Source: Candidatus Poseidoniaceae archaeon (lineage in GTDB: Archaea; Thermoplasmatota; Poseidoniia; Poseidoniales; Poseidoniaceae). Taken from it: DNA of 57,482 nt. The stretch lies in NCBI GenBank assembly GCA_049598575.1, contig JBMYNT010000004.1, positions 1 to 57,482 on the forward strand. The letters are read 5' to 3'. Each line of letters opens with the position of its first letter. Within the stretch, counting starts at the first letter, position 1. A program made the position numbers and the translations under genes. Below are positions 1-44,352 of this stretch, piece by piece. The notes beneath the pieces are model-generated. The model had not been told where the DNA came from. It searched no databases and saw only the letters and a list, made by a program, of their open reading frames with translations.

Positions 1-450
1 AATATCAAGGACAACAACGTAGGTTGTTCCAGGATTCAATGTGATGACTGGAGTAGCAACTGTGTCACCGTCTCCATCGTGAGCTGTTGCTCCACTGAAG
101 TCACCGTCATCGAATACAGCGCTACCGGCACCGTCGTCACAGATAACAGTGAACGCAAGGTCATCACCTTGAATTGGTTCTGAACCTGGCGCCAACTCGA
201 AGGTTGAGAAGAGTTGTTCTGCACCTCCGGTCATGCTATCGATAACGGTTGAGAGCAGAATGACCTTCGTGGACATCTGCTCTTGGGTGTCGTCACCGCT
301 GGCTTGTGCGTTCTGTTGCAGCTTTTCTGCGGTCTGAATGATGACCGCTGCCGCTACTGCCGCAACCAAGATCAATGCAATGAATACAATCATTGCACCG
401 ATACCGATTGCAGCAAGTTCGTCTTGCTTCGTTTCTTTTTCGGTTTTCAT
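1..450 (-). CDS. flaB: Archaellin (archaeal flagellin, FlaB/ArlB); 3' end truncated by the window edge; absent from the ORF track
   Basis: Manual translation from ATG at 450 gives MKTEKETKQDELA-AIGIGAMIVFIALILVAAVAAAVIIQTAEKLQQNAQ...ELAPGSEPI..., the conserved archaellin N-terminal helix (xxGIGxLIVFIAxxLVAAVAAxVLI..LQQ) plus the LAPGS motif. The frame is open to base 1. GGTGA SD lies in an A-rich stretch upstream. Confidence 0.92.
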   Translation of the reverse strand, partial: MKTEKETKQDELAAIGIGAMIVFIALILVAAVAAAVIIQTAEKLQQNAQASGDDTQEQMSTKVILLSTVIDSMTGGAEQLFSTFELAPGSEPIQGDDLAFTVICDDGAGSAVFDDGDFSGATAHDGDGDTVATPVITLNPGTTYVVVLDI

Positions 451-465
451 TTTTTTCACCTTTTT

Positions 466-510
466 TTACTCGTCCTCCCTCAAGCGAGGGTGGAATGGGA
501 TGTGGGTCAC
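466..510 (-). CDS. Putative 14-aa micro-ORF (MTHIPFHPRLREDE)
   Basis: The GTG start overlaps the upstream stop (GTGA), with GGAGGTG SD at 515-521 (4-nt spacer) and TAA at 466-468. No homology evidence. Confidence 0.3.
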   Translation of the reverse strand: MTHIPFHPRLREDE

Positions 511-1499
511 GGAGCACCTCCATGACCCAAGTCAATTCGAAGTGGAATGCGAATAACAGCCACCTCGTCAGGCGTGAGCCTGCTGATGAATGGCACCTTG
601 TCAGCCGTAAAGCCCGGTGGCATCCATGGATGAATGAGAACATCGACGAGTGGTTCCATCGATCTGTTTTGTGCACGAACGGTTACAATCACGTTACCAT
701 TTCTCATTTCGTACCCGGTCGCAATTGAAAGTTTTCGTGAAAGTGGGATTTCGTCCGCTCCATGTCGACGATCCGCTTGAATCTCAAATCGCACTGGAAG
801 ATTGCCTCCAGGGCCAATGACTGGAACATCGATGAAGGATGGTTTTGCAACCCATCCCTCAGGCACTGGAGGAGCAAGACGCATCATCGGCAATGGAATG
901 TCACCGTCGTTGATGATTCGAACAAGAAGGATGCCTGTCTCTCCTCCAGCAGGCCATCGTGTATCAACAGAGAGCCAGAAATGACGGAACAGGAATGGGT
1001 TAAGGGTTGAAGAATTACCGCCGATGAGATCGTCGACAAGGTACTCGACTTCGGTAGCAGCATAGCCAACATCGCCAATTTCAGCAGCACCTGTTGCATT
1101 TCGGAGACGACGAAGAACGTTCTCGACCTCTTCTTCAGCAAGTGCTTTTTCTCGCAACAATCGATGCAACATGGCGATACTGCGTCGCAGGTACAGAACA
1201 TCCTCCTCGAGGACATTGAGTGCTTTTTCAGCCCGACGTACGCTCTTGCGAGCACGACGCAATCGGTGTGTTTCGAGGAAGGTCTTGGCCTGAAGCAGGT
1301 CAAGTTCAGTGGTTGCGAGCGAGTTGACCTCATCGCTAACGACGTTCTGTACGAGAGACTCGAGCTCACGGCTGGCCTGCATCAAACGCTGAGCAGATTC
1401 AGTGGATGCCGCAATTGCAGCTTGCGCATCCGATAAATCTCCATCGCCTAGTTCAGAGTCCATGATGAAATCATCCTGCTCAGCTTTGCTCTTCGCCAT
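507..1499 (-). CDS. Hypothetical protein: N-terminal coiled coil plus C-terminal NEW3/NPCBM-assoc-like Ig domain(s), no signal peptide
   Basis: 330-aa ORF with GGAGGTG SD (1507-1513). The N-terminal half is helical and heptad-rich. 'LLVRIINDG...PPVPEGW...VIGPGG...VRFEI' is a NEW3/CARDB-like pattern. Confidence 0.85.
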   Translation of the reverse strand: MAKSKAEQDDFIMDSELGDGDLSDAQAAIAASTESAQRLMQASRELESLVQNVVSDEVNSLATTELDLLQAKTFLETHRLRRARKSVRRAEKALNVLEEDVLYLRRSIAMLHRLLREKALAEEEVENVLRRLRNATGAAEIGDVGYAATEVEYLVDDLIGGNSSTLNPFLFRHFWLSVDTRWPAGGETGILLVRIINDGDIPLPMMRLAPPVPEGWVAKPSFIDVPVIGPGGNLPVRFEIQADRRHGADEIPLSRKLSIATGYEMRNGNVIVTVRAQNRSMEPLVDVLIHPWMPPGFTADKVPFISRLTPDEVAVIRIPLRIDLGHGGAP

Positions 1500-4400
1500 T
1501 TGATGTCACCTCCTCTGAAGATTCTGTGTTTGCTTGACCGTCTGAACTTACAACCGATTGAGGTTGCTCAAGGATGGCAGAGAGGTCAAGTCCATCCATA
1601 GCAAGGTCGTTGAGAAGACGCGCTGGATCACCAAGGTCACGTTCGATTCGTGTTGCTTTGACCTCGATATCCGTGAGTTTGCCGTAGAGGGAACCATACA
1701 ACTTGTTGGCACGTCGAAGGATAAACCAAACAACGATGGTCGACAAGAGAATGTAACCGACAAGCGAAATCAGGTTGGCCTCATCGGGCGTCATTTGTGG
1801 AGGCAGACCCAAGACGACGCCAACAAACCCAAGCAATGGGAGACTGAGAATGATGGTGAGTTGCCGACGCGAGTCTGTAAGCGCTTGGAAGTGATCAGCA
1901 TAGATGGTCGAGATGCCTTTTCGAGCACGTTGGTAATCTTCGTGAATGTAGCGGAATTCTTCGCTGCTTCGCCATGCCATTCTCCAAACCCATAGAGAGG
2001 CAAGCACGATTGAAACAGGACCCCACCATGCTGCATCATACAGATGGAAGAGGAATCCAAGCATGATGACACCTGAGTAGACTGCACCAAGGCGGTACTT
2101 CTCGTTCTGATTGGTCAGACCGAGTAAACCGATGGTGACAATCAACGCAATACCGAATCCTGCAAACGCAGTGAGTGTGGAAGGAGCGTTTGAGTCGACT
2201 TCTTGCGTGAAGACCACAACATCGTTTTCGACGACATTGTTGAGCGCATAGTCGGATTGGATACTTACTGTACAGTCTGCAGCCTTGCTTTGCTCCCACC
2301 AATCCAACGTTTCACCAGTGATCTTCCAACGCAACGTTTCAATCTCGCCCTCTGCAAGGAAGGGAATGAACGCTGGAGCATCTTCGATAACCAATCCATC
2401 ACAAACGAGTTGAGCTCCAATACCGACTGCGAGTGCTGTTCCTTCGTTCTTTAAATCAAACTCGATGTACGTTGTTTGACCTTCCATGATGAAGTCAAGT
2501 TCATTCCCTTCTGAATCAACGAGTCGTTGAGAATCGGGGTCGATCATCGGGTCGGCATAGACGTTCAATGCAAAGCGGAATGTCTCCTCCGTAATTGGTT
2601 CGTTCGGATCGGGATGGTGCAATCGCATCGTGATGTCGTACCCATCACCCGGCAGAATGTTTGGCCGATCAGGGACTTTGACATTGAAAATGAGGTTCGG
2701 GGAGAGGACGTAAGCAGGTCGCTCGGGAAGTTCGATCAGTTCACTTCCCGGAACACATGGGGCTGAGAGATTGATGTAGTGTACACTCTCTTCCCCTTCG
2801 AGATTGATGAGTGAAATGTTCCAGACGTAATCCTCTTCGTCAAGGCCCAGGTCTGCGATATCAAGGATGCGTTCGATTCCACAAAACTCGATGGAGTACG
2901 CTGCTGGAGCAGTGTTGAGGAACGGAATGTGTGAATACTCGATTGGAACGGTGACTGGATTATCGTTCGCAGGTGCTTGGAGTTTGTCTGCGTATCCAAT
3001 GTCGAACAGTCGCTTCATTTTGAGTGACGTCATCAATTCGCCGCTTCCGTCAACATCAACATCTGTTGGCACAATGGTAACTCGGAGGTCCGCAGCAGTC
3101 GAGAGTGTTGTACTACTGCTGCCTGCAGCGTTCTTGTCAACACTCACAGTCAGCTCGACTGGTACGTTTCGACGGAGCAACAACTGCGTCGATGAATCTC
3201 CTGTGTTGACGATCCAATCATCACTCGCGGTTGTTAAGCCAGGTGCGCGAACTTCGTAGCCGATGTCAACGTAGACATCTTTGTTTCCTGTATTGGTGAT
3301 GATGGCGTTCCACTGGCGATTATCCCCCTCGTGGAAGAAGTATTCGTTTTCCCATCCCTCGATGGTGTATGTGAACACTGGAGCAACGAGCAGTTGCACT
3401 TTTTTGAGCACATAAACATCACCAGTATCTGGATTGTAGACCGTCAAATTCGCATCGTGAACGGCTCCGTTGAGCAGATTGTCGGTCCCGTCAAGCGCTG
3501 GGATATCAATGTCGAAGGAGCCATTCGAGATTCCGTTGATCGGGACGGTGAACGATTGAACGGTAGGTGTTGTACTCCATCCACCATCAACGGTGATGTT
3601 GACGTTTACAGTTTCAACAAGATTCCCTGTGTTCGTCAGACCAAACGGCAATGTTAGCACGGTGCCAGGTACAGCGGCGAGGGAATCGGGCGAAGTCAGT
3701 TGGACATCGTGGACCTCAGAGATGTTGGCAACGATGTTTGCATTGAGCTCGACTAGGTCACCATTTTCGTTAATCATGGACACGGTTAAAACCGACATGT
3801 AGAATTCATCAGCACTTGCATCGGGCGAAGGAATGATGTTGACGCGGACAGATGATGAATATCCAGCGGCGATGACAACCGATGGGGAAGAGTCGAGTTC
3901 GAAAAGAACATCCTCGTATCCTCCGTTGTCCAACGATACAGCAAACGTTGTCGGTCCATTGCCAGTATTCTCGATGTTGACAAACGCAGACAATTGCTCG
4001 TACGGTGTGATGTCAATTGATTGACTGGTTGGCGTTAACGATGCACTGATTGTTTCACCGACGCGAATGTCCATGGTTTGTTGACCAATGTAGGCACCAG
4101 AGTCGAGGTCAAAGTAGCGAACGGTGAGAGGCTGCAGGAGTTGCGAAGGGGCCAGTGGGTCCGTCTTGACTGTCAGTGTCACAAGAGAAAGATGCCCGCC
4201 ACTCGTAGCTGGATAATCCTCGAAATCACTTGCAAGGTCTAGAATGGTGTTGTTAGGACCGGTTGTTGTAAGATTTGCATACCAGCCACTTGGTAAATTC
4301 TCGACGATTTCAAGACGATAGGAGGATCGGTCATTGCCGGTGTTTCCAAACGTGAACATGAAATCTGTATCAACGCCGACATCGGCATCGAGTGGTCCTG

Positions 4401-6375
4401 TCTCGGTAATTTCACCATCGACGACCTTCGGTACAACGATTGAAAGATTCTGCTCGATGACAGGCGCATAAACTGCTGAGGCAGTGTGTGTGCTACCAAG
4501 CGTTGGCGTTGTAGTCACTGGGATTTTGACGGTCCCTGAAAGTGGAAGTTGGCCAGTTCGGCTCTGAATCCCAAGAGATGCAGGGAAGGATTCTCCAAGG
4601 GTCAAACCGTTGGTTTGGCCCGGTGTCACTGAGGCATTCCAACGATCAGCTTCGTTGAATCCACCTGATGTCAACGCTTCGAATGTGATATCGCCAACAG
4701 TGATGTTTGCATCGATTGTTTCAGCCAAATCGGAGACAAGGTTGTGACGAACTTGGACCTCAAGAGCAAGAATTTCATTCACGCCAATGGTTGAACCAGC
4801 ATTCATCACGTCACTTTCAGAAAGGACGATGGTATCCACAGGAAGGCCGGGGTCAACGACAATCGCAGGACGTACCTCAATTTGACCGGAATCGGTTGTT
4901 GGGATGCTGCCAACATCTGCTTGGGCGATGATGAAAGCACTCAGGCTGTCTCCTGCACGGTTGTGCTCGGCAGGAACCAACGGAAGTTGAATCGAAGGAA
5001 CTTCAACATGAATGAATCCAGATACGGTTTGGCCGACTTGAAGTTCACCAGTGTTCTCAATCGAGATGTTGTGAACCCAATTGAGAGCATTCATCGAAAG
5101 GCCCGAAATAAGATTGAAGGATGCCGGTGCGTTGCCTGTATTGGTTACATTGAAGCCGATGGTATCGGTTTTACCGGGAAGCACGTACGTGGTGTCGTTT
5201 GAGACATCGACGGTTGCTTGTAGGAATTCACCAGCCATCACACGCGTCGTGTCTGAAAGACTGTAACCGCTGCCGGCTGAGGTGAGTGAGAGCGAAACAA
5301 TGTCAACATCGGACAGCGCAGCATTATGTGGAACGTTGACCGTGACTGGCAGCGTGGTTGTTTGCCCTGCAGTAAGCGGGCTGGTGGATGTACCATCCAG
5401 TGCCGTATCTGCCCAACCAAGCGTGCTGCTAACGCTGATGTCGAAAATGTCGGTGGTAGAGCCGATGTTTTTGATGATGTAGTACAGTGTAGTTGAATCC
5501 CCTGGCGCTGTGGTACGATCGGAAGGACCGACCATCTCAGCGATGTAATTGCTGAAAATGACATCGAATTCGGAGTGTGTAATTGTATCAGAGCCGGCTG
5601 AACCGTTCATAACCACTCTGACAGACATGTTCCAAAGACCTGTGAGGGAAGCCGCAGAGAACTGTCCGGTCAGCACCTCGCCTTGCGATGAGGAGAATAT
5701 CGACCCCGGCTCCATCGTTTCAGTGTTCGACCAATGTTCGATGGTTGAAGGTGTGTTCGATGCGTTTGTTAGAACAATCTGCATGACGGCTGAAAATGGC
5801 ATAACTCCATCGTTGCGGATGGTTGTGTTGAACATGTGTGACTGGCGGTCGAGGAAGACATACGTGTTCCCTGGTGCAGGAGTTGGAAGGTCGTCAGCGA
5901 TAACGTTCCCCTCACGAAGTGTATCAACATCGAAATCACGTCGATATTCGTTGTTGGCGGTGTTGCCATCGTTCGCACCCGAAACTCGAGCAAAGAGCGT
6001 TTGCGATGGACCTGTTGTCGCAGTCCAACTCAAAAGGTAGGTCGAAGTTCCTGAATTCGCTGTCATGACTCCGAGGTCCACGGTGTCCACGACCTGTTCT
6101 GCGGCATTCGGTGAGCCCTTGTGAACAAGCGAGAGGAACGCGTTACCAGAAGACGTGCCTGCGTTGGAGACGTCGACACGGACTGTGTGCGTGTCAGGAG
6201 CGATGACAAGCCCACTGCTTGTGAAGACCGAGCCCGCCCCGTCGAACTGCATGTTGGTTACCTGGAAATCCGGACCTGCCCGCCCACTTGTTGATGTTGC
6301 ATCGGCAAAAGGAAGCGCCAAGTGTCCAACAAGCAAAGTGACAAGGAGGACAGGAAGCAGCTTATGCCTAAACAT
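1480..6375 (-). CDS. Giant surface protein (1631 aa): signal peptide, repeated NEW3/CARDB-type Ig domains, ~5 C-terminal TM helices and a cytoplasmic coiled coil
   Basis: Hydrophobic N-terminus (MFRHKLLPVLLVTLLVGHLALPFADA); repeated 'N.GN..D.F...V....GW' units; hydrophobic segments near the C-terminus; GGAGGGG SD inside the upstream gene. Confidence 0.92.
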   Translation of the reverse strand: MFRHKLLPVLLVTLLVGHLALPFADATSTSGRAGPDFQVTNMQFDGAGSVFTSSGLVIAPDTHTVRVDVSNAGTSSGNAFLSLVHKGSPNAAEQVVDTVDLGVMTANSGTSTYLLSWTATTGPSQTLFARVSGANDGNTANNEYRRDFDVDTLREGNVIADDLPTPAPGNTYVFLDRQSHMFNTTIRNDGVMPFSAVMQIVLTNASNTPSTIEHWSNTETMEPGSIFSSSQGEVLTGQFSAASLTGLWNMSVRVVMNGSAGSDTITHSEFDVIFSNYIAEMVGPSDRTTAPGDSTTLYYIIKNIGSTTDIFDISVSSTLGWADTALDGTSTSPLTAGQTTTLPVTVNVPHNAALSDVDIVSLSLTSAGSGYSLSDTTRVMAGEFLQATVDVSNDTTYVLPGKTDTIGFNVTNTGNAPASFNLISGLSMNALNWVHNISIENTGELQVGQTVSGFIHVEVPSIQLPLVPAEHNRAGDSLSAFIIAQADVGSIPTTDSGQIEVRPAIVVDPGLPVDTIVLSESDVMNAGSTIGVNEILALEVQVRHNLVSDLAETIDANITVGDITFEALTSGGFNEADRWNASVTPGQTNGLTLGESFPASLGIQSRTGQLPLSGTVKIPVTTTPTLGSTHTASAVYAPVIEQNLSIVVPKVVDGEITETGPLDADVGVDTDFMFTFGNTGNDRSSYRLEIVENLPSGWYANLTTTGPNNTILDLASDFEDYPATSGGHLSLVTLTVKTDPLAPSQLLQPLTVRYFDLDSGAYIGQQTMDIRVGETISASLTPTSQSIDITPYEQLSAFVNIENTGNGPTTFAVSLDNGGYEDVLFELDSSPSVVIAAGYSSSVRVNIIPSPDASADEFYMSVLTVSMINENGDLVELNANIVANISEVHDVQLTSPDSLAAVPGTVLTLPFGLTNTGNLVETVNVNITVDGGWSTTPTVQSFTVPINGISNGSFDIDIPALDGTDNLLNGAVHDANLTVYNPDTGDVYVLKKVQLLVAPVFTYTIEGWENEYFFHEGDNRQWNAIITNTGNKDVYVDIGYEVRAPGLTTASDDWIVNTGDSSTQLLLRRNVPVELTVSVDKNAAGSSSTTLSTAADLRVTIVPTDVDVDGSGELMTSLKMKRLFDIGYADKLQAPANDNPVTVPIEYSHIPFLNTAPAAYSIEFCGIERILDIADLGLDEEDYVWNISLINLEGEESVHYINLSAPCVPGSELIELPERPAYVLSPNLIFNVKVPDRPNILPGDGYDITMRLHHPDPNEPITEETFRFALNVYADPMIDPDSQRLVDSEGNELDFIMEGQTTYIEFDLKNEGTALAVGIGAQLVCDGLVIEDAPAFIPFLAEGEIETLRWKITGETLDWWEQSKAADCTVSIQSDYALNNVVENDVVVFTQEVDSNAPSTLTAFAGFGIALIVTIGLLGLTNQNEKYRLGAVYSGVIMLGFLFHLYDAAWWGPVSIVLASLWVWRMAWRSSEEFRYIHEDYQRARKGISTIYADHFQALTDSRRQLTIILSLPLLGFVGVVLGLPPQMTPDEANLISLVGYILLSTIVVWFILRRANKLYGSLYGKLTDIEVKATRIERDLGDPARLLNDLAMDGLDLSAILEQPQSVVSSDGQANTESSEEVTSNGEEQS

Positions 6376-6799
6376 CGGCGTCCCCTCCTGCTTTTTCGAA
6401 CCGTTGTATGGTCACAGTCTTACCTTGCGATTTCCAAATTTCGAGCAGTTGATTGAGAAGACGGTCGTGTTCTTCGTCCGAAATTCCGAGTCGTCTGCGT
6501 TCTTCCCATAGGAGCAGTTGCTCCGTGCGAGTTAACAACGAATCTCGAAGGTACAACTCAAGTGTACGCCGGTATGCATCACGATCTGATACGGCGTATA
6601 CGATGGACGTACCCGGCAGCTGGTCTGCACGATTTTGAATGAAGTTACCAAGATTCAGTGCCTCATCGTAGGAAAGATTGCGGCGGTCAAGATCACTTTG
6701 TATGGTCGAAGCGATGCTTTGGAGTTCGTACTTGGTTTTAGCACGTTGAATTTTCTTGAAGTACTTGCGGCTTCGTCGCGTCATGCTTGGAGCCGCCAT
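6368..6799 (-). CDS. Hypothetical protein with a C-terminal TerB-like helical motif
   Basis: ATG 6799 (MAAPSM) preferred over the track start because GGAGA lies upstream. 'YLRDSLLTRTEQLLLWEERRRLGISDEEHDRLL' resembles TerB-type DG.IT..E..LL..LR..LGIS.EEH segments. Its stop overlaps the next start. Confidence 0.78.
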   Translation of the reverse strand: MAAPSMTRRSRKYFKKIQRAKTKYELQSIASTIQSDLDRRNLSYDEALNLGNFIQNRADQLPGTSIVYAVSDRDAYRRTLELYLRDSLLTRTEQLLLWEERRRLGISDEEHDRLLNQLLEIWKSQGKTVTIQRFEKAGGDADV

Positions 6800-6840
6800 G
6801 ATTACTCTTCTCCACTGGCAGTTTATCAAACAATTGCCTC

Positions 6841-6898
6841 TAAACCATTAAATTATTTATTATGCATCATATTGTATGCATTTTGCATTATAATGTTT
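6841..6898. promoter_or_regulatory. AT-rich divergent promoter region with palindromic elements
   Basis: Very AT-rich tract between divergent starts (6799 minus, 6957 plus). Contains ATGCAT-N8-ATGCAT (6862-6881), the ATTATAAT palindrome (6887-6894) and TATA-like runs. Confidence 0.55.
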
Positions 6899-6956
6899 GA
6901 ACGACTCCTTGCGGCAAAAACCAAGCATTCATGATGTGCATCAACATCCTAGAAGC

Positions 6957-11407: not shown

Positions 11408-11490
11408 GAGTTGACGCAGACATCGGCGCTTCATCAAGACTCGTGTTCACTACCGATGGTTTTGATACGGTTGACGTCGCTCCTCCGTTT

Positions 11491-13656
11491 ATGTCCTCAA
11501 CTGAGAACAACACACAAGGAGCCCGCCGTGATGAACAACAAACACGTTTTCTATCACGTGAAAACATCGTCAAGATGTTGAAGACAACCATCGTGCTCAG
11601 CGCACTGTTCATGTCCATCTGGGCGGTTATGCTGAACCAGTCGGTTGCATCTCTCGATGGAACTGAAGATGAAGAATCTGCCATTCTCGTCGAAACAGAA
11701 GGCCGTGAAGCCGATGTCTACTGTCCAGAGGGTGGAGCAGACATCTTCCTTGGCACCGATTTCGATGGAGATGGGAAACTCTCAACAAATGAAATCACCA
11801 CCAGCACCAAAGTGTGTCATGGCCAACAAGGTCTTTCTGGACCTCAGGGACAATCCGGACAGGATGGTGAAAACGGATTCAACGGCAACTCAAGCCTCGT
11901 GAATCTAACAGCGCTATCACCAGGAATTCCTTGCCAATTCGGAGGAATTCAAATCCAATCAGGAATCGACAACGATCACAACCAATTCCTCGACGAAGAA
12001 GAAGTGCAAACAACGGCACACATCTGCGATGGGCAACTCGGAGACGAGGGGCCTGAGGGTCAACAAGGAACCGATGGGGCGCAAGGATACTCTGCCCTCA
12101 TTGAACAACACCAAGCTCCAACCTCCATCTGTCCACAAGGCATCGTCATGCACTTCGGTGTTGATGATGGAACCGACATGGCGACAGCAAACGACGGAAC
12201 TCTTCAGCAAGACGAAATTCGAGAATCCTTGCAAATTTGTTCTGAGCAGTTGTATGAAGGATTAACAGGAGATATATTCACAAATTCAGGCGATGCAATG
12301 TCATCTCTTTGTGATAAATCAGAATGGAGCGAAACATCATCAGTCTTCATCTTTTCAGCATCCGATGGAACCAACGGATGCGAACTATGGATTCTCGATC
12401 AAGACAACGCACCATTGATGCTCATGGACATTCATGCATCTGGCGATTCGATTCCAGGCCGTGAACTTGGCATTCACGTTGTCGAAACGGATCGTGGACA
12501 ACGTTTCTTCTTTGATGCTGATGATGGCGTTCATGGACGCGAATTATGGGTGAGCGATGGAACATCCATCGGAACAACGATGCTTGGAGACATGGAATCT
12601 GGTGATGCCATTGATTGGAACTCGGAAATCACGACATGGATGAACGGTGTTGTGTTCACAACGAACGGGCAACAAGGGAACAGAATGTGGTGGAGCAATG
12701 GAAGTGTGACCACATCCATCTGGCAAGCACCGTGGTTTTCAGCTTCCGCATCATCGGATTTGATCAATCAATCCGTTGCAATAACGTCGATTGGTCAAGG
12801 TCTACTCCATGGTGATGCATCGGGTCTTTGGTTTGCTGCGAAAGAGACACAAATTGGACTCGAAATGATGTACCTTGACAACAACGGGACGCTGCATATG
12901 TTCGATTTGCAACCATTCGGTGATTCTTCACCGTCTCGTGGTGTTTCGGTCGATGGTGGATATGTGGTCGTTGCTAGTGATGGGACTGGACGACAACTGG
13001 CGAAGTTGGATCATGATGGAGGCTACCAGTGGCTGACCTCAATGACAAAAGAAGGAACGACCACACCAACATCCGTGGTTGCTCCTGCCTTTGGAATCCA
13101 TAAACTCGGTGATACGCTCGTCTTTGACGTGGTCTACAGAGGTGCTGATGCAACGTTGTTCGCCTACTCCTTGACCAACGGAATGCTTCAGGAACTCAGT
13201 TCAAACATTGTTGCACCGGGTCACAGTGTAGATGTTGTCTCGAATGGAAACACGATTTGGTTTGATTGTGTTCAAGCCAATACAGGCATGGAGATTTGCC
13301 AGACCGATGGAACCGTTACGGGCACAATGTTGTCCGTGGATTTGATGCCTGGCCTGAGTGCAAGTCAACCACGCTCGTTTGCTTACGTTGATTCAACATT
13401 GTACGTCCTCGCTGAAGGGTTGGATGATTCGGGAACAAACAGTGGCCACGCGTTGTGGTCCATCGATGGACAAGCTGCAACACTCGAGCTCGACGTGTGG
13501 TCGGGTGTTGGCAACGATTCCAATGCTGGCACATATGGATCACTTGTTGCAACATCGAACCATCTGTTGTTTGTTGCCGATGATGGCCAACACGGTCATG
13601 AATTGCATCAATACCTTCGTTCCTCCATCCGTGATCAATGGATGGTTTGGGATTGA
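11491..13656 (+). CDS. Surface protein: N-terminal membrane anchor/signal, Cys-bracketed repeats with collagen-like G-X-Y stretches, and an ELWxxDGT-repeat beta-propeller
   Basis: Hydrophobic IVLSALFMSIWAVML; three 'CP.GG...G.D.d.dG.L...E......C.G' units; GXY runs at 11821-11892 and 12031-12093; GRELWVSDGT, GMEICQTDGT and GHALWSIDG repeats. Start uncertain (11443, 11491 or 11575). Confidence 0.88.
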   Translation: MSSTENNTQGARRDEQQTRFLSRENIVKMLKTTIVLSALFMSIWAVMLNQSVASLDGTEDEESAILVETEGREADVYCPEGGADIFLGTDFDGDGKLSTNEITTSTKVCHGQQGLSGPQGQSGQDGENGFNGNSSLVNLTALSPGIPCQFGGIQIQSGIDNDHNQFLDEEEVQTTAHICDGQLGDEGPEGQQGTDGAQGYSALIEQHQAPTSICPQGIVMHFGVDDGTDMATANDGTLQQDEIRESLQICSEQLYEGLTGDIFTNSGDAMSSLCDKSEWSETSSVFIFSASDGTNGCELWILDQDNAPLMLMDIHASGDSIPGRELGIHVVETDRGQRFFFDADDGVHGRELWVSDGTSIGTTMLGDMESGDAIDWNSEITTWMNGVVFTTNGQQGNRMWWSNGSVTTSIWQAPWFSASASSDLINQSVAITSIGQGLLHGDASGLWFAAKETQIGLEMMYLDNNGTLHMFDLQPFGDSSPSRGVSVDGGYVVVASDGTGRQLAKLDHDGGYQWLTSMTKEGTTTPTSVVAPAFGIHKLGDTLVFDVVYRGADATLFAYSLTNGMLQELSSNIVAPGHSVDVVSNGNTIWFDCVQANTGMEICQTDGTVTGTMLSVDLMPGLSASQPRSFAYVDSTLYVLAEGLDDSGTNSGHALWSIDGQAATLELDVWSGVGNDSNAGTYGSLVATSNHLLFVADDGQHGHELHQYLRSSIRDQWMVWD

Positions 13657-16292: not shown

Positions 16293-19200
16293 TCATTTGT
16301 ATTGCAAAATCTCTCCGTTGGCATCTTTGTACCACCAACTTCCATCTTGTTGATTCTGCCACCACCAAACGCCATCCGAGCCTTGGGTCCAACCATCGGC
16401 AGATGCGGTTTGTGTTGTTGCAGCAACCGGTTCAGATTCTTGAATCGGTTCACTCAAGTTGAGGTCAGCATCGCCCTCAATGTCTTCTTCTTCATCCTCA
16501 TCGAGATAATCCGAATATTCGTCCCATTCGTATTCCGATTTGGAACCACGCCGAACGGTTGCATTTCGAGCCATGAGCAAGAGAGCGAGAATGATCGAAA
16601 GGCCGAGCAATGCACCAATGGAACCGAGAATTGGGTTCACATCTCCAAACACAGCCTCGCTGAAGGAAGGGTCGCTCTTCGGTCGAACATCGACCGAAGG
16701 CCCGTTGCCTTTGACGCCATTTTCGAGCTGAACTTCAAGCCATTGCAGGCCCACCTGCTCAGGAGCCCAATCGATGAGTATGGTACCAAGACCGCCTTCT
16801 GCAACCTCGAGTTCGGTTTGACGGAGTACTTCCGACGTTCCATCAGCACGGACAACGGAAATCGTAGCATCTGTGGTTCCGTCCAATGTTCCAACGTTCT
16901 TGACGAAGATTTGCACAGCGGTCGAATCGCCTTGTTGGAGGTTCAAGCGTGAGTATTCCATGGCCGGAGTCTCCAGTTCAAACTTCGGCTGTCGCCATTC
17001 CATGAGCCATGACGTGACCGCATTGCCTGCAGATGAACCGGCTTCTCCAAGAACAAGATTGCCAGCAAGGTCTCGTCCTTCAACAAGAACGTAAACGGTA
17101 AAGCGATCGACCAACATATCGTCCGTGATGACGCTCAAATCCATCGTTCCTGTACCGATGAGACTCAATCCACTAATTTCTGTGCCTTGCAAGAGGAACG
17201 GACTGTCACCCTCCCGAATGAATTCACCTGTTTCGGTATTTTCGACCCACCACGCCAATCGTAAGGATTCAAAGTCAATTCCTCCTTCTTCGGAAAGGAC
17301 AATCGTGACTTCGTGTTCTTCAGCCGAAAGAATCGACCCTGGACGGGGTGTTTGCACCTCGACCGGTTGCGGGCCAAGCCCGTCAACAACCATCCACTTC
17401 ACAGAGGATTCTTTCTCGGTCGCATCGACGCCTTGAGGTGGCAAACAACCAACGGACCACGTCAATGGAATGGTTCCAGATGTTTGTGGTGAACGAAGTT
17501 CAACGTTCCAAATTCCATTGTAGGTGTCTGCCGAGTAGGTTTGACCGGCAAACATGACCTCTACACTGCAGTTGAAATCAGGTGTTTCTTCCGTTGCAGC
17601 AAACACCAATCCACCTGTCAATTCGAACGGCGAATTCGGTGGCAATCGGGCACCATCATCGAGAACAGTACCTTGTGTCAACACCAACGAAACAGATTCT
17701 TGAGGAATGGTCAATGCAGGTGAAAACCGCCACCGAAGTGCAGGGAACGTTTGGATGACTTCCTGTCCTGCACGATCGATGATTTTCACACTCGGCTCAC
17801 GGAAAGTATCACCAAGGTCAGGCGTGGTCCACGCCAATTCGAGGTCAACAACCAATCGGGTGTCTTTCTCGTAGGGTCCAGCGGTGGTACCATCGAGGGC
17901 AAGCATGGCACAATCGTTGACGATCAAATGGATGCTGTTTGATGTGCAGGAATCGGTTCTGAAATCCCACGTAAACGACAGAGGTGAGGTGAGGATGTTC
18001 GAAGCGAGCTGGATTTCAACCGTTGTAAAGTCCGAAGCACCGTTGGGTTCGCTCATGTCGACACGTAACGTGTAAGCCTGTTCAGGGTGCAACCACGGTT
18101 GTGCACCACCTGTCCATGACATAGCGTTCGAGGTCAAGGTTGGTGGCCCATCCGGTCCGATTTGATACATGAATAGGTGCTCGCCTTCTTCCCCAGTCCC
18201 TGCATCTTCGAGTGCTTGTCCCGATTCGTCCTCACCGACCAGATAGCCTGCGACCTTCTGGCCTTGCGAGCCCATGGAATCATCGAACAAGAGCGTGTAG
18301 ATTCCTGTTGAAAGGGTCAAATCCGTTGGGATAATGAGCGATCGTTGTTTGTATTCATCTGGACTTGGCCAGCCGTTCAAATCGACATCATCGGCCCATT
18401 GTCTCCACAGCATCACGTGGACATCGGATGGCAACAACACAGGGTCAAGAATCTGGAATTGAACGGTTTGACTGGTCGATGCGAGTCGATGATCGTACCA
18501 TGCAACCGTTGAATCGATGACGGCCGGGGCGGTTGGGTCGATCTTGAAGGTCCGAGTGTATTCAGAATCTCCAACAACATCTCCACCATTCAATGGAATC
18601 ACTCGAACGGTCCAGGTCAAATCGCCGAAGGAATATGGAGCCACATCGGAAACATTCCACATGTCGACATCGAGACTCGTGGTATTGGCGACCATGGTAT
18701 TTCCTTGCCACAACTGAACCTCAGCATCGCCGTCTGCAAAGGCATCGATACTCTCAACGCCTTCGTAACCGACATCAATCGTGAAATTCAGGCCCATGCC
18801 AGCTGCGAGGTACTCGGTGGACGAATCGATGATGCCATGATCGTCCATGATATCGACCGATTTGATGACCAAATCATTTTCAAACGCTTGGCCTCCTGTG
18901 AGCCCATTCCACATGTATTGACCTGGTCGTGAAATAACGCTGTTATCGAGAACAAGACGCATCGAAGCAGTAAGCCAGTTTTCATCGTCCCATCCTTGCT
19001 CAACGCGGAATTTCACGGTTATTTCACGCATTGTTGCCGATGTCTCTGAGATGCTGAACGCTTCGGTCGGATGCAATTCGATGAGATCACTGTCTGCTTG
19101 TCCGAGAGCAGTTCCTCCTCCAGTTGGCAACAACCACGTAGCATGATTGTTTTCTCCTTGGACATCAAGTCGAATCAACGAGATGGTACGTGCGGTATCG

Positions 19201-21371
19201 ACGCTAAATCGCGTCGTAAACGATAGCCAGCGTTGAGAAGGCGTCAGTGGAGTTGACGCATTTTCCACGGCTACCATACCTGCTGCAACGTCGTCACTGA
19301 ATTCCATGTCCGTGACTTCAACGGTCATTTTTCCATTTGATAAACCAGTAAATGGGAACGAAATCGATGGCGATGAGCCAGGCGTACGATAAGCAGCATT
19401 TGCAGCCATTACGAGAGGTGACTGCTCATCAGCAGAGATGGAAACCATGGTCGCATAAGGTGCTGCAAGATTGGAAAAGGTGGCAACACCGTTTCCGTAC
19501 GCCTCAATATCAACGAGAGCGAAACCTTGGCCCAAGTTGTACAACAACGCACTCTGACTGCTCAAGGTAGATTGCATGAGTGCATATTCTGATGCATTTA
19601 GTTCGAGGCGGTAAACGGTTGCGTTGTCCAATGTTCTTGAAAGGATGGTCGACCCGGCAATGCGCAACGACAGACCTGTCATGTTTCCGTTTTCACTGGA
19701 AACTGAAACTGCAAAATGTTCGAGGTTCGAGGCAGGAATCCATGTTGACGCCTCAGCGAGGCCTGCGAATCCGAAGGATGCACGATGCGCCTTTTGACCG
19801 GTTGAAAAGTGATCCTGGAAGCCCCACGAGCCGATTCGAACATCTGGGTCTCCCCATTCAAGCAAACCGTCTCCGTTCAAATCCAGTGAAGGTGAATGCA
19901 CGCGACCACCCGTTGACATGGTGACCTGAATCTCGTCGAGGAGAGCAGGTTGTGTTGAATTGTGCATGAACATGAGTTGGAAGGCATGCTCGTTTGCGTC
20001 AAGCTGACCCGAGTACGGCAGCGTGATGGCAACCCACGCATCAACTTCATCGTGACGAACGTAAGCATCGTACTCTTGCACAGTCGCAGCAATCTGGTAT
20101 CCCGCAAGTGGGGAATTGCTCGTATACCATGGAGAATGGACTGTTCCATTGGCGAGCGATGTGATGGAACCATCTAGGTAGGTGCTGTTGTTCATCGTCC
20201 AGCCACGGTTCATTGGGTCCGTAGAAAACGTGTCCTTGAGCAGACCACCTGCTGTGATGGATTCAACCGATGGCATGGAACTTGCATCCAACCCCTTGAA
20301 GATCATGCGTAGGCGCAATGAACCGTAGGTCTCCCAATCAACCGCATCGAGGTGAACAAGAGTGCCTTCGATGTTCTCGAATCCTGAAAGATTGTCTCCA
20401 GTCGTTGCATCAATGAGAGTCCATGTGAGGCTCGAACCGGTAGGCAAGTCTGCATTGATGTGCATAGGAGCATAGGGCCCCATGGCGAGAGAGAAGCTGT
20501 TGGAAGAATTGTATCCAAACGATGGACTTGTCCATGATGTCAATGGAGGGATGACCACCTTGACGTCATCAACAAACCAGTAATCACAGCAGGTCCCACT
20601 ACCAGAGGTTTGCTGGATGCGGAATTGCGATGTGGAATGGAGCGCCGCTGCGGGCAAAATTGTCGAATATTGGAAATTGCTGGTTTGTGAACCGCCACCT
20701 TGGAAGGTGTGGAAGGTTGTCCATTGACCACCAGCTGTTTTGTATTTGAGCTGAAGATTTTCCCCGGAATCGGGTGTTTCACCACAACCTGAACGACCCT
20801 CGTGCACCCATGCATGGAACGGGATGTTGGTGCGTCCTGCGAGATTGGTTGCTGGCGAAGTGGCATAAGTCGAACCCGCATAGGTTCGAATCGATCCACC
20901 ACTCGAGCCATTGTATCCACACGATGGCGTCGTCACACGGCCGCTGTACGAGTTGGAGAAAGTCCAACCTTGTGCTCCGTTGTTGAAATCATATCCAGGA
21001 GCTGAGCCATCGCCCGTCAGAACGCCCGATTGTGAGAAGGTGTTGTTTTTCACTGCGTCCACGTGGTTCCAAGCGGCATCGCCTTCCCAGAGTAACGTCT
21101 GAGAGTTTTCCATCGTCTCAGATTGAATGCTCATGTCTAGCGATGTGATAGCCCCTGAACTGGTAGGAACATCAAGTTCAAACGGCGTTAAACTGGCTTG
21201 ATTTGGGCGAATATCGACGGTCATAGGCATGTTCTCTCCAACCGAACCGACGATCTGCACATCATCCAAGTGAACCACTGGAGCAGGCGGAGCAAACGTC
21301 GTGTATGGACCCATGACGAACAAAAAGAGAACGAGCAAAGCAACTCCACGTCCCTTCGGAGAGGCGGCCAT
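16293..21371 (-). CDS. Giant single-TM surface protein (1692 aa) with a reelin/BNR-like jelly-roll domain, Ig/CARDB stalk and an acidic, Trp-rich cytoplasmic tail
   Basis: Signal peptide; 'LQLKYKTAGGQW...LP.AA....QFRIQQ..CCDYWFVDDV'; CARDB-like 'VKNVGTLDG'; TM ILGSIGALLGLSIILALLLMA; tail GVWWWQNQQDGSWWY. Confidence 0.92.
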   Translation of the reverse strand: MAASPKGRGVALLVLFLFVMGPYTTFAPPAPVVHLDDVQIVGSVGENMPMTVDIRPNQASLTPFELDVPTSSGAITSLDMSIQSETMENSQTLLWEGDAAWNHVDAVKNNTFSQSGVLTGDGSAPGYDFNNGAQGWTFSNSYSGRVTTPSCGYNGSSGGSIRTYAGSTYATSPATNLAGRTNIPFHAWVHEGRSGCGETPDSGENLQLKYKTAGGQWTTFHTFQGGGSQTSNFQYSTILPAAALHSTSQFRIQQTSGSGTCCDYWFVDDVKVVIPPLTSWTSPSFGYNSSNSFSLAMGPYAPMHINADLPTGSSLTWTLIDATTGDNLSGFENIEGTLVHLDAVDWETYGSLRLRMIFKGLDASSMPSVESITAGGLLKDTFSTDPMNRGWTMNNSTYLDGSITSLANGTVHSPWYTSNSPLAGYQIAATVQEYDAYVRHDEVDAWVAITLPYSGQLDANEHAFQLMFMHNSTQPALLDEIQVTMSTGGRVHSPSLDLNGDGLLEWGDPDVRIGSWGFQDHFSTGQKAHRASFGFAGLAEASTWIPASNLEHFAVSVSSENGNMTGLSLRIAGSTILSRTLDNATVYRLELNASEYALMQSTLSSQSALLYNLGQGFALVDIEAYGNGVATFSNLAAPYATMVSISADEQSPLVMAANAAYRTPGSSPSISFPFTGLSNGKMTVEVTDMEFSDDVAAGMVAVENASTPLTPSQRWLSFTTRFSVDTARTISLIRLDVQGENNHATWLLPTGGGTALGQADSDLIELHPTEAFSISETSATMREITVKFRVEQGWDDENWLTASMRLVLDNSVISRPGQYMWNGLTGGQAFENDLVIKSVDIMDDHGIIDSSTEYLAAGMGLNFTIDVGYEGVESIDAFADGDAEVQLWQGNTMVANTTSLDVDMWNVSDVAPYSFGDLTWTVRVIPLNGGDVVGDSEYTRTFKIDPTAPAVIDSTVAWYDHRLASTSQTVQFQILDPVLLPSDVHVMLWRQWADDVDLNGWPSPDEYKQRSLIIPTDLTLSTGIYTLLFDDSMGSQGQKVAGYLVGEDESGQALEDAGTGEEGEHLFMYQIGPDGPPTLTSNAMSWTGGAQPWLHPEQAYTLRVDMSEPNGASDFTTVEIQLASNILTSPLSFTWDFRTDSCTSNSIHLIVNDCAMLALDGTTAGPYEKDTRLVVDLELAWTTPDLGDTFREPSVKIIDRAGQEVIQTFPALRWRFSPALTIPQESVSLVLTQGTVLDDGARLPPNSPFELTGGLVFAATEETPDFNCSVEVMFAGQTYSADTYNGIWNVELRSPQTSGTIPLTWSVGCLPPQGVDATEKESSVKWMVVDGLGPQPVEVQTPRPGSILSAEEHEVTIVLSEEGGIDFESLRLAWWVENTETGEFIREGDSPFLLQGTEISGLSLIGTGTMDLSVITDDMLVDRFTVYVLVEGRDLAGNLVLGEAGSSAGNAVTSWLMEWRQPKFELETPAMEYSRLNLQQGDSTAVQIFVKNVGTLDGTTDATISVVRADGTSEVLRQTELEVAEGGLGTILIDWAPEQVGLQWLEVQLENGVKGNGPSVDVRPKSDPSFSEAVFGDVNPILGSIGALLGLSIILALLLMARNATVRRGSKSEYEWDEYSDYLDEDEEEDIEGDADLNLSEPIQESEPVAATTQTASADGWTQGSDGVWWWQNQQDGSWWYKDANGEILQYK

Positions 21372-40782: not shown

Positions 40783-40827
40783 GGCCATCGTCGCACCTTT
40801 GATGTGCAAGAACGTACAAGCACACAC

Positions 40828-43800
40828 ATGGGCGGAGTGCTCAAGTCACGTGTCTTGACCCTGCTCGTTCTTGCCTGCATGATTGGATTTAGTCAAATTC
40901 CATTGGTTGAACATAACATTCTGTCTTCTGGCGAGCGAGTCGTCCAACGAAGTGGGTCCAATCCTGGAGTAACCGATCTACCTACATGGAGAGTTGGAGA
41001 CAAGTGGATTTACTCAGGGACGTTTGACCCTTCCATTCTCATCACAGATACGGGCGTTTCAGCGAACGTGGGTGAGATTCGAGGCGATGCAACTGCTGAA
41101 GTCACAGACATTCTCGAACTCCAATTCGACAACGGAACCGAATGGGTTTACAAACTGCGAATGTCCGCAGATTTCGACAAAAGTGGTGTCGAACTTGAAG
41201 GGTTCACAGGGAACGCTGAAATCCAATTCACACAGACCGAATACCTCCGAGTGAGCGACTTTGCGACTGTGAAGAACGATCTCGATCTGTACATCAAGTT
41301 CATTCCATACGGCATCGGTTCGCTCACGCAAATTCTCGGTGATATCACGATTACGAACGAATACAGCCCTGCTACAGAGGCGTACGATTTCCCACTCCGC
41401 TATGGTGAACGGTGGACTTCACTGACAACTGCATCCTCTCAGTGGTCTGGTCAAAGCGATTACATTACACCATTTCCGCCACCAGAAACGGATACCAACA
41501 CAACGACATGGGAAGTCACCGATGTCGGACAACCTCGAAACGCCATTGGAGCCGGAATCGCCTACAGTGGATGCGATGCATCGTATGAACTGACTTCGTG
41601 GAACTCTGATGGCGTCTCAACAGGTTACCGATGGTACTGCCCAGCGGTCAACAATTATGCGTGGCGGCATGCCGAAGAAGACGTTGGACTAACCATCGAT
41701 TTCCGTTTAAAGCAGTACATGCCAGTTGGAGCGACGGGCGTTGAGAGCAACAGCGATCCAGGTACTCGGCCGACGTGTGTCGACGTCGATCCTGAGCGTT
41801 CCCTCACAGCGCTTGATTCGCCACTTGAAGTATGGGTTCACCTCAGCCCATCGTGTTATGGAACCATTGACGGAGTTGGGGTTGAGGTTGCGTACGATGG
41901 TGCCTCAACCACTGTCTATACCGCTTCAAACGGTTCAGCAAGCACAACGATTGATTCAGGCAGCAGCATTGATTATTCAGCAACGAATACGGACTGGTCC
42001 AGTCATGGCATCATGGCAAAATCTGGAAGTTACGTAGGTGCAGCGACCATCACCCTTGACGAATACCTCGTAGGCCTCGACTTGATTGCAGACGAAGAGC
42101 GAGCTGTCATCATTCGAAACAGAAGCGGAGTTGTCAGCACTGTCAGTTCCCTGTCAGGTTACAATGTCCTTCCTGGTGATGACTTAACCATCGAAGTCGC
42201 TGTTGCCAACAAAGGTATCACAACATCCACAGCGACAGATTTGCGCATTTATCATCCAGATGGCTCCATCTTTGACCTCGGATTACCACCTCTCGCCACA
42301 TACGAATCTCACAAGGTCAATTTCACTTGGACAGTTCCCGCTGATGCAGCGATTGGAACCTTACCAATTCGATGGGAATCAGATCCTCTTCAAGTCAACA
42401 CTGCAGATGCCAATGCAGATAACGACCTCGGTGAAATTGAGTTGTTCATTGGACGTCTACCGACAGCAGTCCTCGAACCCATCGAAGTCTACACAAACGT
42501 CGAGACGGTCATCAATGCCTCGGGTAGTTTTGATGAGGACGGGGGCAATGTATCGTGTCTGTTCAATGTTCCTTGGTACGATGGTACCCGCTCAGCAGCG
42601 TGGACCCGAGTTGAATCCATGGATTGCATGCTGAATTGGACATGGACAAACGATGGAGAATATCCCGTCGAGGTCACCATTACCGACGAAGAACAAGACC
42701 AAGTCGAAGGTATTCTTGATGTTGTGATTTTAAATCGCGCCCCAAACATCGAGGTCATTAGCGCTCGTAACGAGGTCAAAGTCGAACATCCTGTTACACT
42801 CTACGCTTACGCAAACGATACGGACTCTGAAGACCCGTTTCCCGGAATCGTGGATGTGTACTGGCCAAATGCAATCTGCGAGGAAGGATACTACACTCGA
42901 ATTTGTACAACGACTGCACCAACGGAAGGATGGCATACATTCCAAGCCGTTGGTGTCGACGACGACAGTGCCATGACCATGGCCAGCATCGACATCCGAT
43001 TCACCAACATCAACCCCCACGGCCTGTCTGTCACCATGACCAACGACAGTGGCCCGCTTCCACTCGATGTCCAGCAAACCTGGCATGTTCAAGAGGACCA
43101 GATGGTCAATCTCCGTGGTCAAGCACTCGATTCAATCGATGATTTGGATGGTTTAACCCACCGTTGGTGGCCAGATGATGCACAACCAAATCTCATCAAG
43201 ACGTTCGACGGACGAGTCTCGGAATTTGAGATGATGTGGGAGACAGCTGGACTCCACCGCATGCGCCTCGAAGTGAGCGACTCTGAAGGGGCCAGCAGCG
43301 GTACATACGAGCGATGGGTAAGTGTTGCAAACGTCCCGCCAGTTGTTCAGCCACTGGAGCAAGTTCTCCCCCTTGCAGAAGGAGAAGAAGTTCGATTGGT
43401 CGGCAATGCAACGGATACACCCTCCGATTACGATACGTTGATTCGTTGCTGGGATGTCGATCCCGGTCTCGATTCCAACGATATCGGCGGTGCTGATGAT
43501 GATTGTGATGTGGTTGGCGATGAACTGGTCTGGCATTGGAACACAAGCGGAACGCACACGGTCATCTACCACGTAACCGATGACGACGGCGTGCGTGTGA
43601 GTGAGATTCTCTCCATTGAAGTCCTCAACATCCCACCAATTGTTCGAACCAAGGACATTGCCTGCAACGCCCTCGAAGCATGTCTTTTGGATGCAAGTGG
43701 AACGATCGACTCCATCAATGACCTCGACCAAATCACGGTCGTTTGGGATCTCGACACATCCGTTGACAGCAATGGTGATGGTGTCAAAGACAACGATGCC

Positions 43801-44328: not shown

Positions 44329-44352
44329 GTACAAGGAAGCAGACATTAAGGT

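Follow-up and report, generated by a model that had tools for sequence, protein, structure and literature searches.

A giant immunoglobulin-rich membrane protein and two cytoplasmic proteins encoded at the front end of the archaellum gene cluster of marine Poseidoniaceae

The euryarchaeal archaellum operon of the arl1 type, as found in Methanococcus, Pyrococcus, Haloferax and Oxyplasma, begins with the archaellins and continues through a gene of the ArlC/D/E slot to ArlF-G-H-I-J. Additional surface components have been described around such loci, in that S-layer-like proteins with multiple immunoglobulin (Ig) domains occur in the arl loci of Thermococcales and Methanococcales (bioRxiv 10.64898/2026.04.22.720090), and the extra components of archaeal type IV pilus loci include S-layer-like proteins and one intracellular coiled-coil protein (Makarova 2016, PMC4858521). 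An archaellum operon has also been reported in Poseidoniales (Marine Group II, MGII), as the 'flagella operon' of Rinke 2018 (PMC6461757) and, in Tully 2019 (PMC6336850, Fig. 4), as a putative motility operon. For this MGII region Tully 2019 mentions 'several orthologous proteins lacking annotations', together with conserved genes on both sides. Here we describe the minus strand of positions 1 to 6799 of a stretch of 57,482 nucleotides (nt) from a Candidatus Poseidoniaceae archaeon (GCA_049598575.1, contig JBMYNT010000004.1; this whole stretch is referred to as the window), where a Poseidoniaceae (Marine Group IIa) arl gene cluster begins with three genes ahead of an archaellin gene; these encode proteins of 143, 1631 (the giant protein) and 330 amino acids (aa). 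The operons of Rinke 2018 and Tully 2019 concern the same genomic region in the same organisms, and the portions of these papers cited here give no account of the architecture, coupling, co-loss or role of the giant, 330-aa and 143-aa proteins. A first-pass annotation of the window had implied that the pairing of a giant protein with an archaellin was unique, which is overstated given the multi-Ig proteins of arl loci, the coiled-coil protein of pilus loci and the MGII genes already published. What is new is how the pair is built, from a polytopic giant Ig protein whose cytoplasmic face is conserved and a cytoplasmic helical/Ig partner coupled to it, together with its persistence outside Poseidoniales, its loss along with the arl genes, and the corrected gene models.

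The cluster shares with the arl1-type operon the leading position of the archaellins, the order ArlF-G-H-I-J and the presence of a gene in the ArlC/D/E slot, but this slot holds no ArlC/D/E detectable with hidden Markov models (HMMs), three extra genes stand before arlB and apparently carry the promoter of the unit, and chemotaxis genes are lacking in MGII according to published analysis (PMC6461757). The extra proteins have no relatives seen beyond marine lineages, namely Poseidoniales and the lineage of a locus (L098) described below. The giant protein has in common with arCOG05057 and the S-layer-like proteins of Thermococcales that it is a large secreted Ig-fold protein encoded in an archaellum locus with a suspected envelope role; compared by description, it differs from the arCOG05057 type in its predicted polytopic five-helix ending with a conserved cytoplasmic face and in its translational coupling to a dedicated cytoplasmic partner. 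This partner, the 330-aa protein, is like ArlX of Thermoproteota and ArlC/D/E of Euryarchaeota in being cytoplasmic, encoded in the arl cluster and conserved to the degree of motor components, and its modelled long helical region may be able to oligomerise, as in those proteins. It also shares with FlaC-type proteins a helical region followed by an 'NPF' pattern. It differs from ArlX, which has one transmembrane (TM) anchor, in having none, and from ArlC/D/E in carrying a NEW3-like Ig domain and in matching neither PF04659 nor PF05377 in Pfam, a negative result that extends to 26 members of its family.

We are highly confident that the genes for the 143-aa, giant and 330-aa proteins belong to the archaellum cluster, and they probably encode lineage-specific accessory subunits of the archaellum. 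The minus strand of positions 1-6829 consists of four consecutive open reading frames (ORFs), of which the last runs off base 1. This last frame is the 5' part of arlB1 (positions 1-450, minus strand; the first 150 of 190 codons, after which the gene leaves the window), and its product matches PF01917 (E 5e-22) and NCBIfam 'flagellin' (E 1e-20) and starts with MKTEKETKQDELAAIG followed by IGAMIVFIALILVAAVAA, a class-III signal peptide (...AAIG/IGAMIVFIALILVAAVAA), in keeping with the first-pass annotation, which had read the run as four same-strand genes leading into an archaellin. The same annotation had placed an overlap at 510/507, which has to be given up, since the archaellin begins at ATG 450 (or GTG 459) after a gap of 56 nt that follows the 330-aa gene and contains a Shine-Dalgarno (SD) sequence, GGTGA, 7 nt upstream of the ATG. 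GTG 510 was rejected as the archaellin start, being ruled out by an in-frame TAA at 468-466, and the 14-codon micro-ORF starting there is not conserved in other genera. At the far end of the run, the ORF at 6829-6368 would encode 153 aa from a TTG that falls within the TATA-like box of the promoter, and gene callers working on near-identical contigs choose ATG 6799, giving 143 aa.

An exact look-up of the 330-aa protein returned five contigs. Over 11 kb the reference contig used here (L001; GCA_049601615.1, 124.8 kb) agrees with the window at 99.87% identity, window base 1 corresponding to L001 position 11499, and arlB2 to arlJ lie outside the window itself. On this contig arlB1 (190 aa, PF01917) is accompanied by arlB2 (194 aa, PF01917), an unannotated 281-aa protein without a match (X3; L001:12271-13116), an ArlF-like protein (218 aa, E 4.6e-6), ArlG (164 aa, E 4.2e-13), ArlH (241 aa, E 3.9e-52), ArlI (572 aa, 668.9 bits against an NCBIfam cut-off of 550), ArlJ (597 aa, E 5e-116) and, after arlJ, a 147-aa protein with two TM segments and no match (L001:18579-19022). 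The scores of ArlF and ArlG lie below the NCBIfam curated cut-offs; their order and position are right. The first-pass annotation had left it to an extension of the contig to show whether arlH, arlI and arlJ follow, and they do; because arlB2 to ArlJ follow in L001, the four-gene run of the window opens a complete archaellum cluster. The 147-aa two-TM protein is conserved 3' of arlJ in Poseidoniaceae, and in one Thalassarchaeaceae locus (L096:17839-18840) arlJ is followed by a 333-aa protein with a weak Arc_PepC_II match (E 2.3e-6), a candidate prepilin/archaellin peptidase.

A scan of GTDB species representatives found the 330-aa family in 221 genomes, from which the best 80 loci, all of the Poseidoniaceae type, were fetched. 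In a tblastn survey of all 94 loci then in hand, the order giant C-terminal module, X2 (the 330-aa gene), arlB, X3, arlF, arlG, arlH, arlI and arlJ was found without exception within contig reach. Over about 100 loci the giant/330-aa pair lies directly upstream of arlB wherever the contig reaches, and the examined members of the narrow X2 family all adjoin arlB, so that the linkage to archaellins holds in other genomes. Within Poseidoniaceae this synteny is weak proof by itself, because the outer flanks (peroxiredoxin, HhH-GPD and PolX) are equally collinear; the deciding evidence lies in more distant loci. In a Thalassarchaeaceae locus (L095, GCA_045568195.1) a 138-aa gene, a 1572-aa giant and a 281-aa X2 precede arlB to arlJ, and the same arrangement recurs in L097, where X2 is about 33% identical. 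In L096 (Thalassarchaeaceae, GC 36%) all flanks differ, with DNA primase and DUF373 upstream and PolD DP2 downstream, and here the giant gene, X2 and arlB to arlJ stay together without the small gene. The most remote X2-like family member, with 27% identity (pairwise E 2e-12 over 270 aa), is found in L098 and L099, which come from a lineage outside Poseidoniales with an ArlI only 50% identical; these loci encode two giant Ig proteins with C-terminal multi-TM modules, an 11-nt overlap leads into the X2-like gene, and arlB, a genuine ArlC/D/E (PF04659, E 1.8e-9), ArlF/G-like proteins, ArlH, ArlI and ArlJ follow.

Several observations on individual loci may be recorded alongside. The tandem giants of L098 (L098:2463-10011) measure 1285 and 1226 aa, and the tail of the first has KRAERDIQN, which is faintly like the RIERDLGDP motif of the giant proteins described below. 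Two independent assemblies, L092 and L093, were considered as a cluster without the small gene and rejected as such, the homology to L095 beginning inside the giant gene and the product having no signal peptide; the remaining giant product is 1363 aa, the 143-aa gene is gone, and these loci represent either a rearranged, truncated or inactivated copy or a shared assembly chimera. Two further contigs, L015 (CALDQY010000305.1) and L024 (CAXQWT010000116.1), are filed as 'uncultured Rhodobiaceae bacterium' and 'Salipiger bermudensis' respectively, carry the archaeal archaellum cluster at 95-98% protein identity, and look like mis-binned contigs.

The gain or loss of the block was followed in a metagenome scan with the PolX that flanks the L095 cluster, which yielded 43 loci. 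In 18 of these (PolX 62-64% identical) the genes for PolX, HhH-GPD, peroxiredoxin and flavin reductase stand next to one another, and the block from the 143-aa gene to arlJ is absent from the syntenic slot; X2 and the giant gene are present in all five arl-positive loci of the scan with sufficient reach. Because the whole block is missing from the slot in the 18 loci, the unit of presence and absence includes the 143-aa, giant and 330-aa genes. The earlier proposal that these genes work with the archaellum gains from both observations, the linkage of the pair to arlB and the absence of the block as a unit in archaellum-less relatives. The emptied slot consists of about 350 nt and a 91-aa two-TM ORF between HhH-GPD and peroxiredoxin (L109:12824-13099 and equivalents), located on the strand that the arl genes would use and with no detectable similarity to any cluster protein.

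The three genes are closely packed. The 143-aa gene (6368-6799, minus strand; small143 in our labelling) and the giant gene (1480-6375, minus strand) overlap by 8 nt at 6375/6368, with GGAGG upstream of the giant ATG and within the 143-aa gene, and the giant gene overlaps the 330-aa gene (507-1499, minus strand) by 20 nt at 1499/1480, with GAGGAGGTGA (1506-1515, minus strand) located 7 nt upstream of the 330-aa ATG and inside the last codons of the giant gene. An embedded SD had been claimed at every junction of the run, which is correct for these two overlaps and incorrect for arlB, where the SD lies in the intergenic gap. Counting from the ATG nearest the giant stop, the overlap of giant stop and X2 start is retained in 90 of 92 loci, with values of -20, -14, -11, -8, -1 or 0 nt, and every one of the 77 distinct sequences has an SD-like site (mostly GAGGAGGTGA) 3-14 nt ahead of the X2 start. 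This SD encodes the conserved 'EEV' near the C-terminus of the giant protein. The conservation of the embedded SD and of the overlap goes far beyond chance, and the 143-aa, giant and 330-aa genes present themselves as a translationally coupled train.

All transcription signals given here are read from the sequence. The TATA-like box TTGTTTGATAA (6833-6823, minus strand) ends 23 nt from the 143-aa ATG in the window, and by a strict regular expression 31 of the 57 distinct upstream regions have the box ending at the constant distance of 21-22 nt from the start codon. This spacing suggests a leaderless or near-leaderless messenger RNA starting at the 143-aa gene, which would likely be the start of the transcription unit. 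Further upstream of the box, ATGCA..TGCAT dyads (in the window within the 6817-6900 stretch) occur in 29 of the 57 regions and are candidate regulator sites; the promoter layout at 6817-6900 may resemble the EarA-type control of other archaellum operons. No box of the TTGTTTGATAA type was found in any of 78 X2-arlB gaps. In Poseidoniaceae the gap has no TATA-like box, and in all loci of this family it holds a hairpin, CCCTC-GCTT-GAGGG, followed by GGAGGACGAG (469-493 in the window, minus strand), of which one inner pair covaries (UA, GC, CG, UG) and which may act in transcript processing, in transcript stability or as an attenuator. Scans of the window for Rfam families and tRNAs gave no match. 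Gaps of the Thalassarchaeaceae type have a TATA-like ACTAT(C/G)ATATAC instead. Co-transcription of the three genes with arlB is plausible in Poseidoniaceae and may differ between families. A strong transcription start site reported for an MG-II 'archaellin' in differential RNA sequencing from the Red Sea (PMC5069720) was set aside as evidence on the gap, the gene concerned being of the DUF1628 type and pilin-like.

In the giant protein a signal peptide is followed by an ectodomain of about 1370 aa that is acidic (D+E 12.8%, K+R 3.7%) and rich in Thr and Ser. NEW3 (PF10633) is present in this protein, with 28.6 bits at aa 291-356 against a Pfam gathering cut-off of 24.4, and weaker ectodomain matches are to CARDB, FixG_C and Ig_VWA7. 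No internal sequence repeats were found in the ectodomain, its N-glycosylation sequons are not in excess (18 seen against 16.6 expected), and none of the three genes has a paralogue elsewhere in the window. The C-terminal module (aa 1380-1631; 1483-2238, minus strand), which was modelled and fold-searched separately, contains three strongly hydrophobic and two weaker segments, and AlphaFold2 models it with five long helices (aa ~1400-1556; predicted local distance difference test score, pLDDT, 67), the last of which runs on from TM5 into the cytoplasm and is accompanied by short helices. Thus, of the multi-TM bundle and cytoplasmic coiled coil ascribed to the end of this protein in the first-pass annotation, the bundle is retained with five helices, and the coiled coil is replaced in the model by one long helix and short helices. 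An alignment of 24 homologues places the most conserved stretches of the module in the predicted cytoplasmic loop, with the motif SSxEFxLIHEDYQRARKGxSTxYxDHF, and in the tail, with the motif YGxLYGxLTDxExxxxRIERDLGDPARLL..LAxDG followed by an acidic end; the tail of the window protein carries RIERDLGDPARLL. A search with the module gave 141 matches, all from Poseidoniales-type sources, while no Pfam family matches over the membrane module and Foldseek found no structural neighbour for it in the PDB (best E 0.61). A stator of the MotA/ExbB/TolQ type was considered for the membrane module and rejected, no stator family being among the 50 Foldseek matches listed.

The 330-aa protein has neither a signal peptide nor a TM segment and is placed in the cytoplasm. 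Its AlphaFold2 model (pLDDT 73) consists of five helices at aa 19-159 and an Ig-like beta-sandwich at aa 174-322, for which Foldseek returned generic Ig folds alone (FixG_C, TRAP, transglutaminase barrels and HYDIN-like), and a search of the PDB by sequence with the family profile gave nothing useful. The description of this protein as a NEW3 protein is partly sustained, by the Ig sandwich and by weak NEW3 matches in 23 of 26 family members (best E 4.7e-5), and partly not, the window protein itself scoring 13.1 bits, under the Pfam cut-off. The family is narrow, with 682 clusters at 90% identity, and an exhaustive HMMER search of 1.84 billion representatives at 50% identity found 58 clusters.

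The 143-aa protein has no TM segment and a basic N-terminus, appears helical by eye and is placed in the cytoplasm. Its family comprises 691 clusters at 90% identity, all from Poseidoniales, and is more highly conserved than the 330-aa protein, with 54-56% identity between Poseidoniaceae and Thalassarchaeaceae. It has no significant match in Pfam, NCBIfam or the PDB, its best match being a non-significant one to YggX (E 0.15). The label 'TerB-like' given to this gene in the first-pass annotation was dropped, there being no TerB in Pfam at E<=10 for four family members, no NCBIfam match at E<=0.1 for the window protein, and no TerB in the PDB either by sequence or with a profile of 20 sequences. 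The sole resemblance to TerB is the pattern DG..E...L...LGxS. In L096 and L098 no gene of the 143-aa kind precedes the giant gene.

Neither ArlC/D/E nor ArlX was detected in the L001 cluster by Pfam or NCBIfam, and the position that ArlC/D/E occupies in L098 is taken by the 281-aa protein. Two of six homologues of this protein match FlaC_arch weakly (E 0.05), and its motif LYEAQALxxNPFL is similar to the sequence that closes the FlaC_arch match of the genuine ArlC/D/E homologue P0462, LYDLISTQYNPF; an hhalign comparison of the 281-aa profile with P0462 was not significant, and the sequence gave nothing useful against the PDB. FlaC/D/E proteins can be highly divergent (Makarova 2016, PMC4858521), and the cytoplasmic 281-aa protein is probably a highly divergent ArlC-type component missed by standard HMMs. 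The 330-aa protein is taken here as an addition to ArlC/D/E and not a replacement for it, because it coexists with a genuine ArlC/D/E in L098.

Further indications come from the pattern of constraint, expressed as the identity of proteins from Poseidoniaceae genera to those of the window lineage. ArlI stands at about 88%, ArlJ at about 76% and ArlH at 72-75%, and the 143-aa (66-78%), 330-aa (62-72%) and 281-aa (64-70%) proteins come close to the latter two. The giant C-terminal module follows at 50-60%, and the archaellins, ArlF and ArlG lie at 40-52% (archaellins 41-52%), with the giant ectodomain at 35-44%. By this measure the three cytoplasmic proteins appear to evolve like the motor parts ArlH and ArlJ, and the giant ectodomain like the exposed filament proteins.

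These properties lead us to favour a tentative reading, which we think quite possible without calling it probable, in which the giant and 330-aa proteins would form a trans-membrane scaffold or anchor of the archaellum. The 330-aa protein would then join the membrane module of the giant in a trans-membrane complex beside the motor, with the conserved cytoplasmic loop and tail docking the 330-aa protein, whose helical half would oligomerise and whose Ig domain would contact the assembly of ArlH/I/J and the ArlC-like protein. On the outside, the Ig-rich ectodomain would be part of, or plugged into, the surface layer around the filament exit and would give the ArlF/G stator something fixed to hold, while the 143-aa protein may help to assemble or regulate the unit. 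The complex would in this way supplement the kind of cytoplasmic scaffolding supplied by ArlX or ArlCDE in other archaea, and the resulting frame would link envelope, membrane and cytoplasmic motor, be it for rotation or for a static, load-bearing attachment filament. The failure of Pfam and NCBIfam to detect ArlX or ArlCDE suggests that a scaffold is needed, and the report that MGII has no chemotaxis genes (PMC6461757) points the same way. A stronger version, in which the pair is a trans-envelope motor frame of a kind not seen before, with one polypeptide reaching from the surface through the five-helix membrane module to a cytoplasmic docking face that holds an Ig/helical ring protein, and in which this frame replaces S-layer anchoring of the stator or acts as a motor-gating contact sensor without chemotaxis proteins, we regard as somewhat unlikely.

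A number of points weigh against a scaffold or anchor. If the 281-aa protein fills the ArlC/D/E slot, a second cytoplasmic scaffold is not strictly needed, and the 330-aa profile gave a probability of 35% over 74 columns in hhalign against P0462, which is not significant. The monomer models are of moderate quality (pLDDT 73 and 67) and there is no informative fold relative for either X2 or the giant protein. The 143-aa protein is not an obligatory partner, since its gene does not precede the giant gene in L096 or L098. The 56-nt hairpin gap and the TATA-like box before arlB in Thalassarchaeaceae-type loci make co-transcription with arlB less than certain, and the co-loss applies to the syntenic slot. 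An anchor in a surface layer is conjectural for the envelope of Poseidoniales, and the ectodomain, being acidic, fast-evolving and Ig-rich, would suit an adhesin or a surface protein exposed to phages just as well.

This last point is the starting point of the alternative that fares best, which we nevertheless consider unlikely, namely that the archaellum is accompanied by a surface adhesin for particle attachment, the giant protein, which would be produced together with it and act beside the filament, outside the motor, with the 330-aa and 143-aa proteins as its cytoplasmic anchor and its export or folding helpers. The ectodomain, Ig-rich, acidic, rich in Thr and Ser and the fastest-evolving part of the protein, is what would be expected of an adhesin, the window encodes many other large CARDB/PKD surface proteins, and Rinke 2018 argues that the MGII archaellum serves adhesion and that flaJ is enriched on particles (PMC6461757). 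However, a polytopic five-helix module whose cytoplasmic face is its most conserved part is rare in adhesins, as is coupling to a cytoplasmic protein as conserved as ArlH and ArlJ, and strict adjacency to arlB over deep divergence, combined with co-loss, exceeds the usual effect of co-regulation alone. A scaffold agrees better than a simple adhesin with the conservation on the cytoplasmic side of the giant protein and with its translational coupling to a partner in the cytoplasm.

The giant protein could also be S-layer-like, building or altering the surface layer locally to let the filament pass, and have no scaffolding role. This has a precedent in the role suggested for arCOG05057 proteins encoded with the archaellum genes of Methanococcales and Thermococcales (bioRxiv 10.64898/2026.04.22.720090; PMC4858521), and a multi-Ig architecture with a signal peptide would suit it, but it leaves the conserved cytoplasmic loop and tail and the obligatory coupled cytoplasmic partner unexplained, and the likeness to arCOG05057 is one of described architecture; we regard a passage collar of this kind as distinctly improbable. 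Similarly poor prospects attach to the idea of a contact or load sensor, in which the ectodomain would sense a surface or particle, the membrane module would signal to the 330-aa protein and the ArlH/I motor would be switched, replacing the missing chemotaxis-ArlCDE input. The lack of che genes in Poseidoniales (PMC6461757) speaks for such a sensor, as do the conserved cytoplasmic motifs, the cytoplasmic partner coupled to the giant gene and the basic, highly conserved 143-aa protein, which might be a regulator; against this, the reading is purely architectural and none of the three proteins has a known signalling domain, Pfam and NCBIfam scans having found no HAMP, PAS, kinase or receiver domain in any of them. 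That the three genes are unrelated to the archaellum and merely kept in place by collinearity, as the equally collinear outer flanks of Poseidoniaceae would allow, is very improbable, given that the adjacency is kept amid the unrelated flanks of L096 and in the other lineage of L098 and L099, that the 18 arl-negative loci lose the block as a unit while the outer flanks stay, and that all examined members of the narrow X2 family adjoin arlB.

The rest of the window contains several very large surface-type proteins. A 1692-aa ORF at 16293-21371 (minus strand) has no Pfam match at E<=1e-5, two PKD/CARDB proteins of about 1180 aa each are encoded at 40804-47937 (plus strand), and a 1489-aa S8 subtilase with a CARDB domain at 52989-57458 (minus strand). 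At 11443-13656 (plus strand) lies the gene for a DUF7151/collagen-like protein of 737 aa, which may be a candidate member of the 'collagen-like' set of MG-II, disordered proteins described as very highly expressed in that group (PMC5069720).

Poseidoniales are the most abundant archaea of surface ocean water, and to our knowledge none has been cultured. For this group the analysis supplies corrected gene models, with new positions for the archaellin start, the 143-aa start and the promoter, and it defines three lineage-specific proteins, conserved and gained or lost in step with the archaellum genes, which are concrete targets for study. Whether the archaellum of these organisms is for swimming or for sticking is a matter on which the published accounts differ, PMC6461757 arguing for adhesion and PMC6336850 for motility, and the question of how a stator is fixed without a canonical S-layer has been raised for Thermoplasmatales (PMC12448462). 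If the giant and 330-aa proteins do form a trans-envelope anchor, they would bear on how the archaellar stator is fixed without a canonical S-layer.

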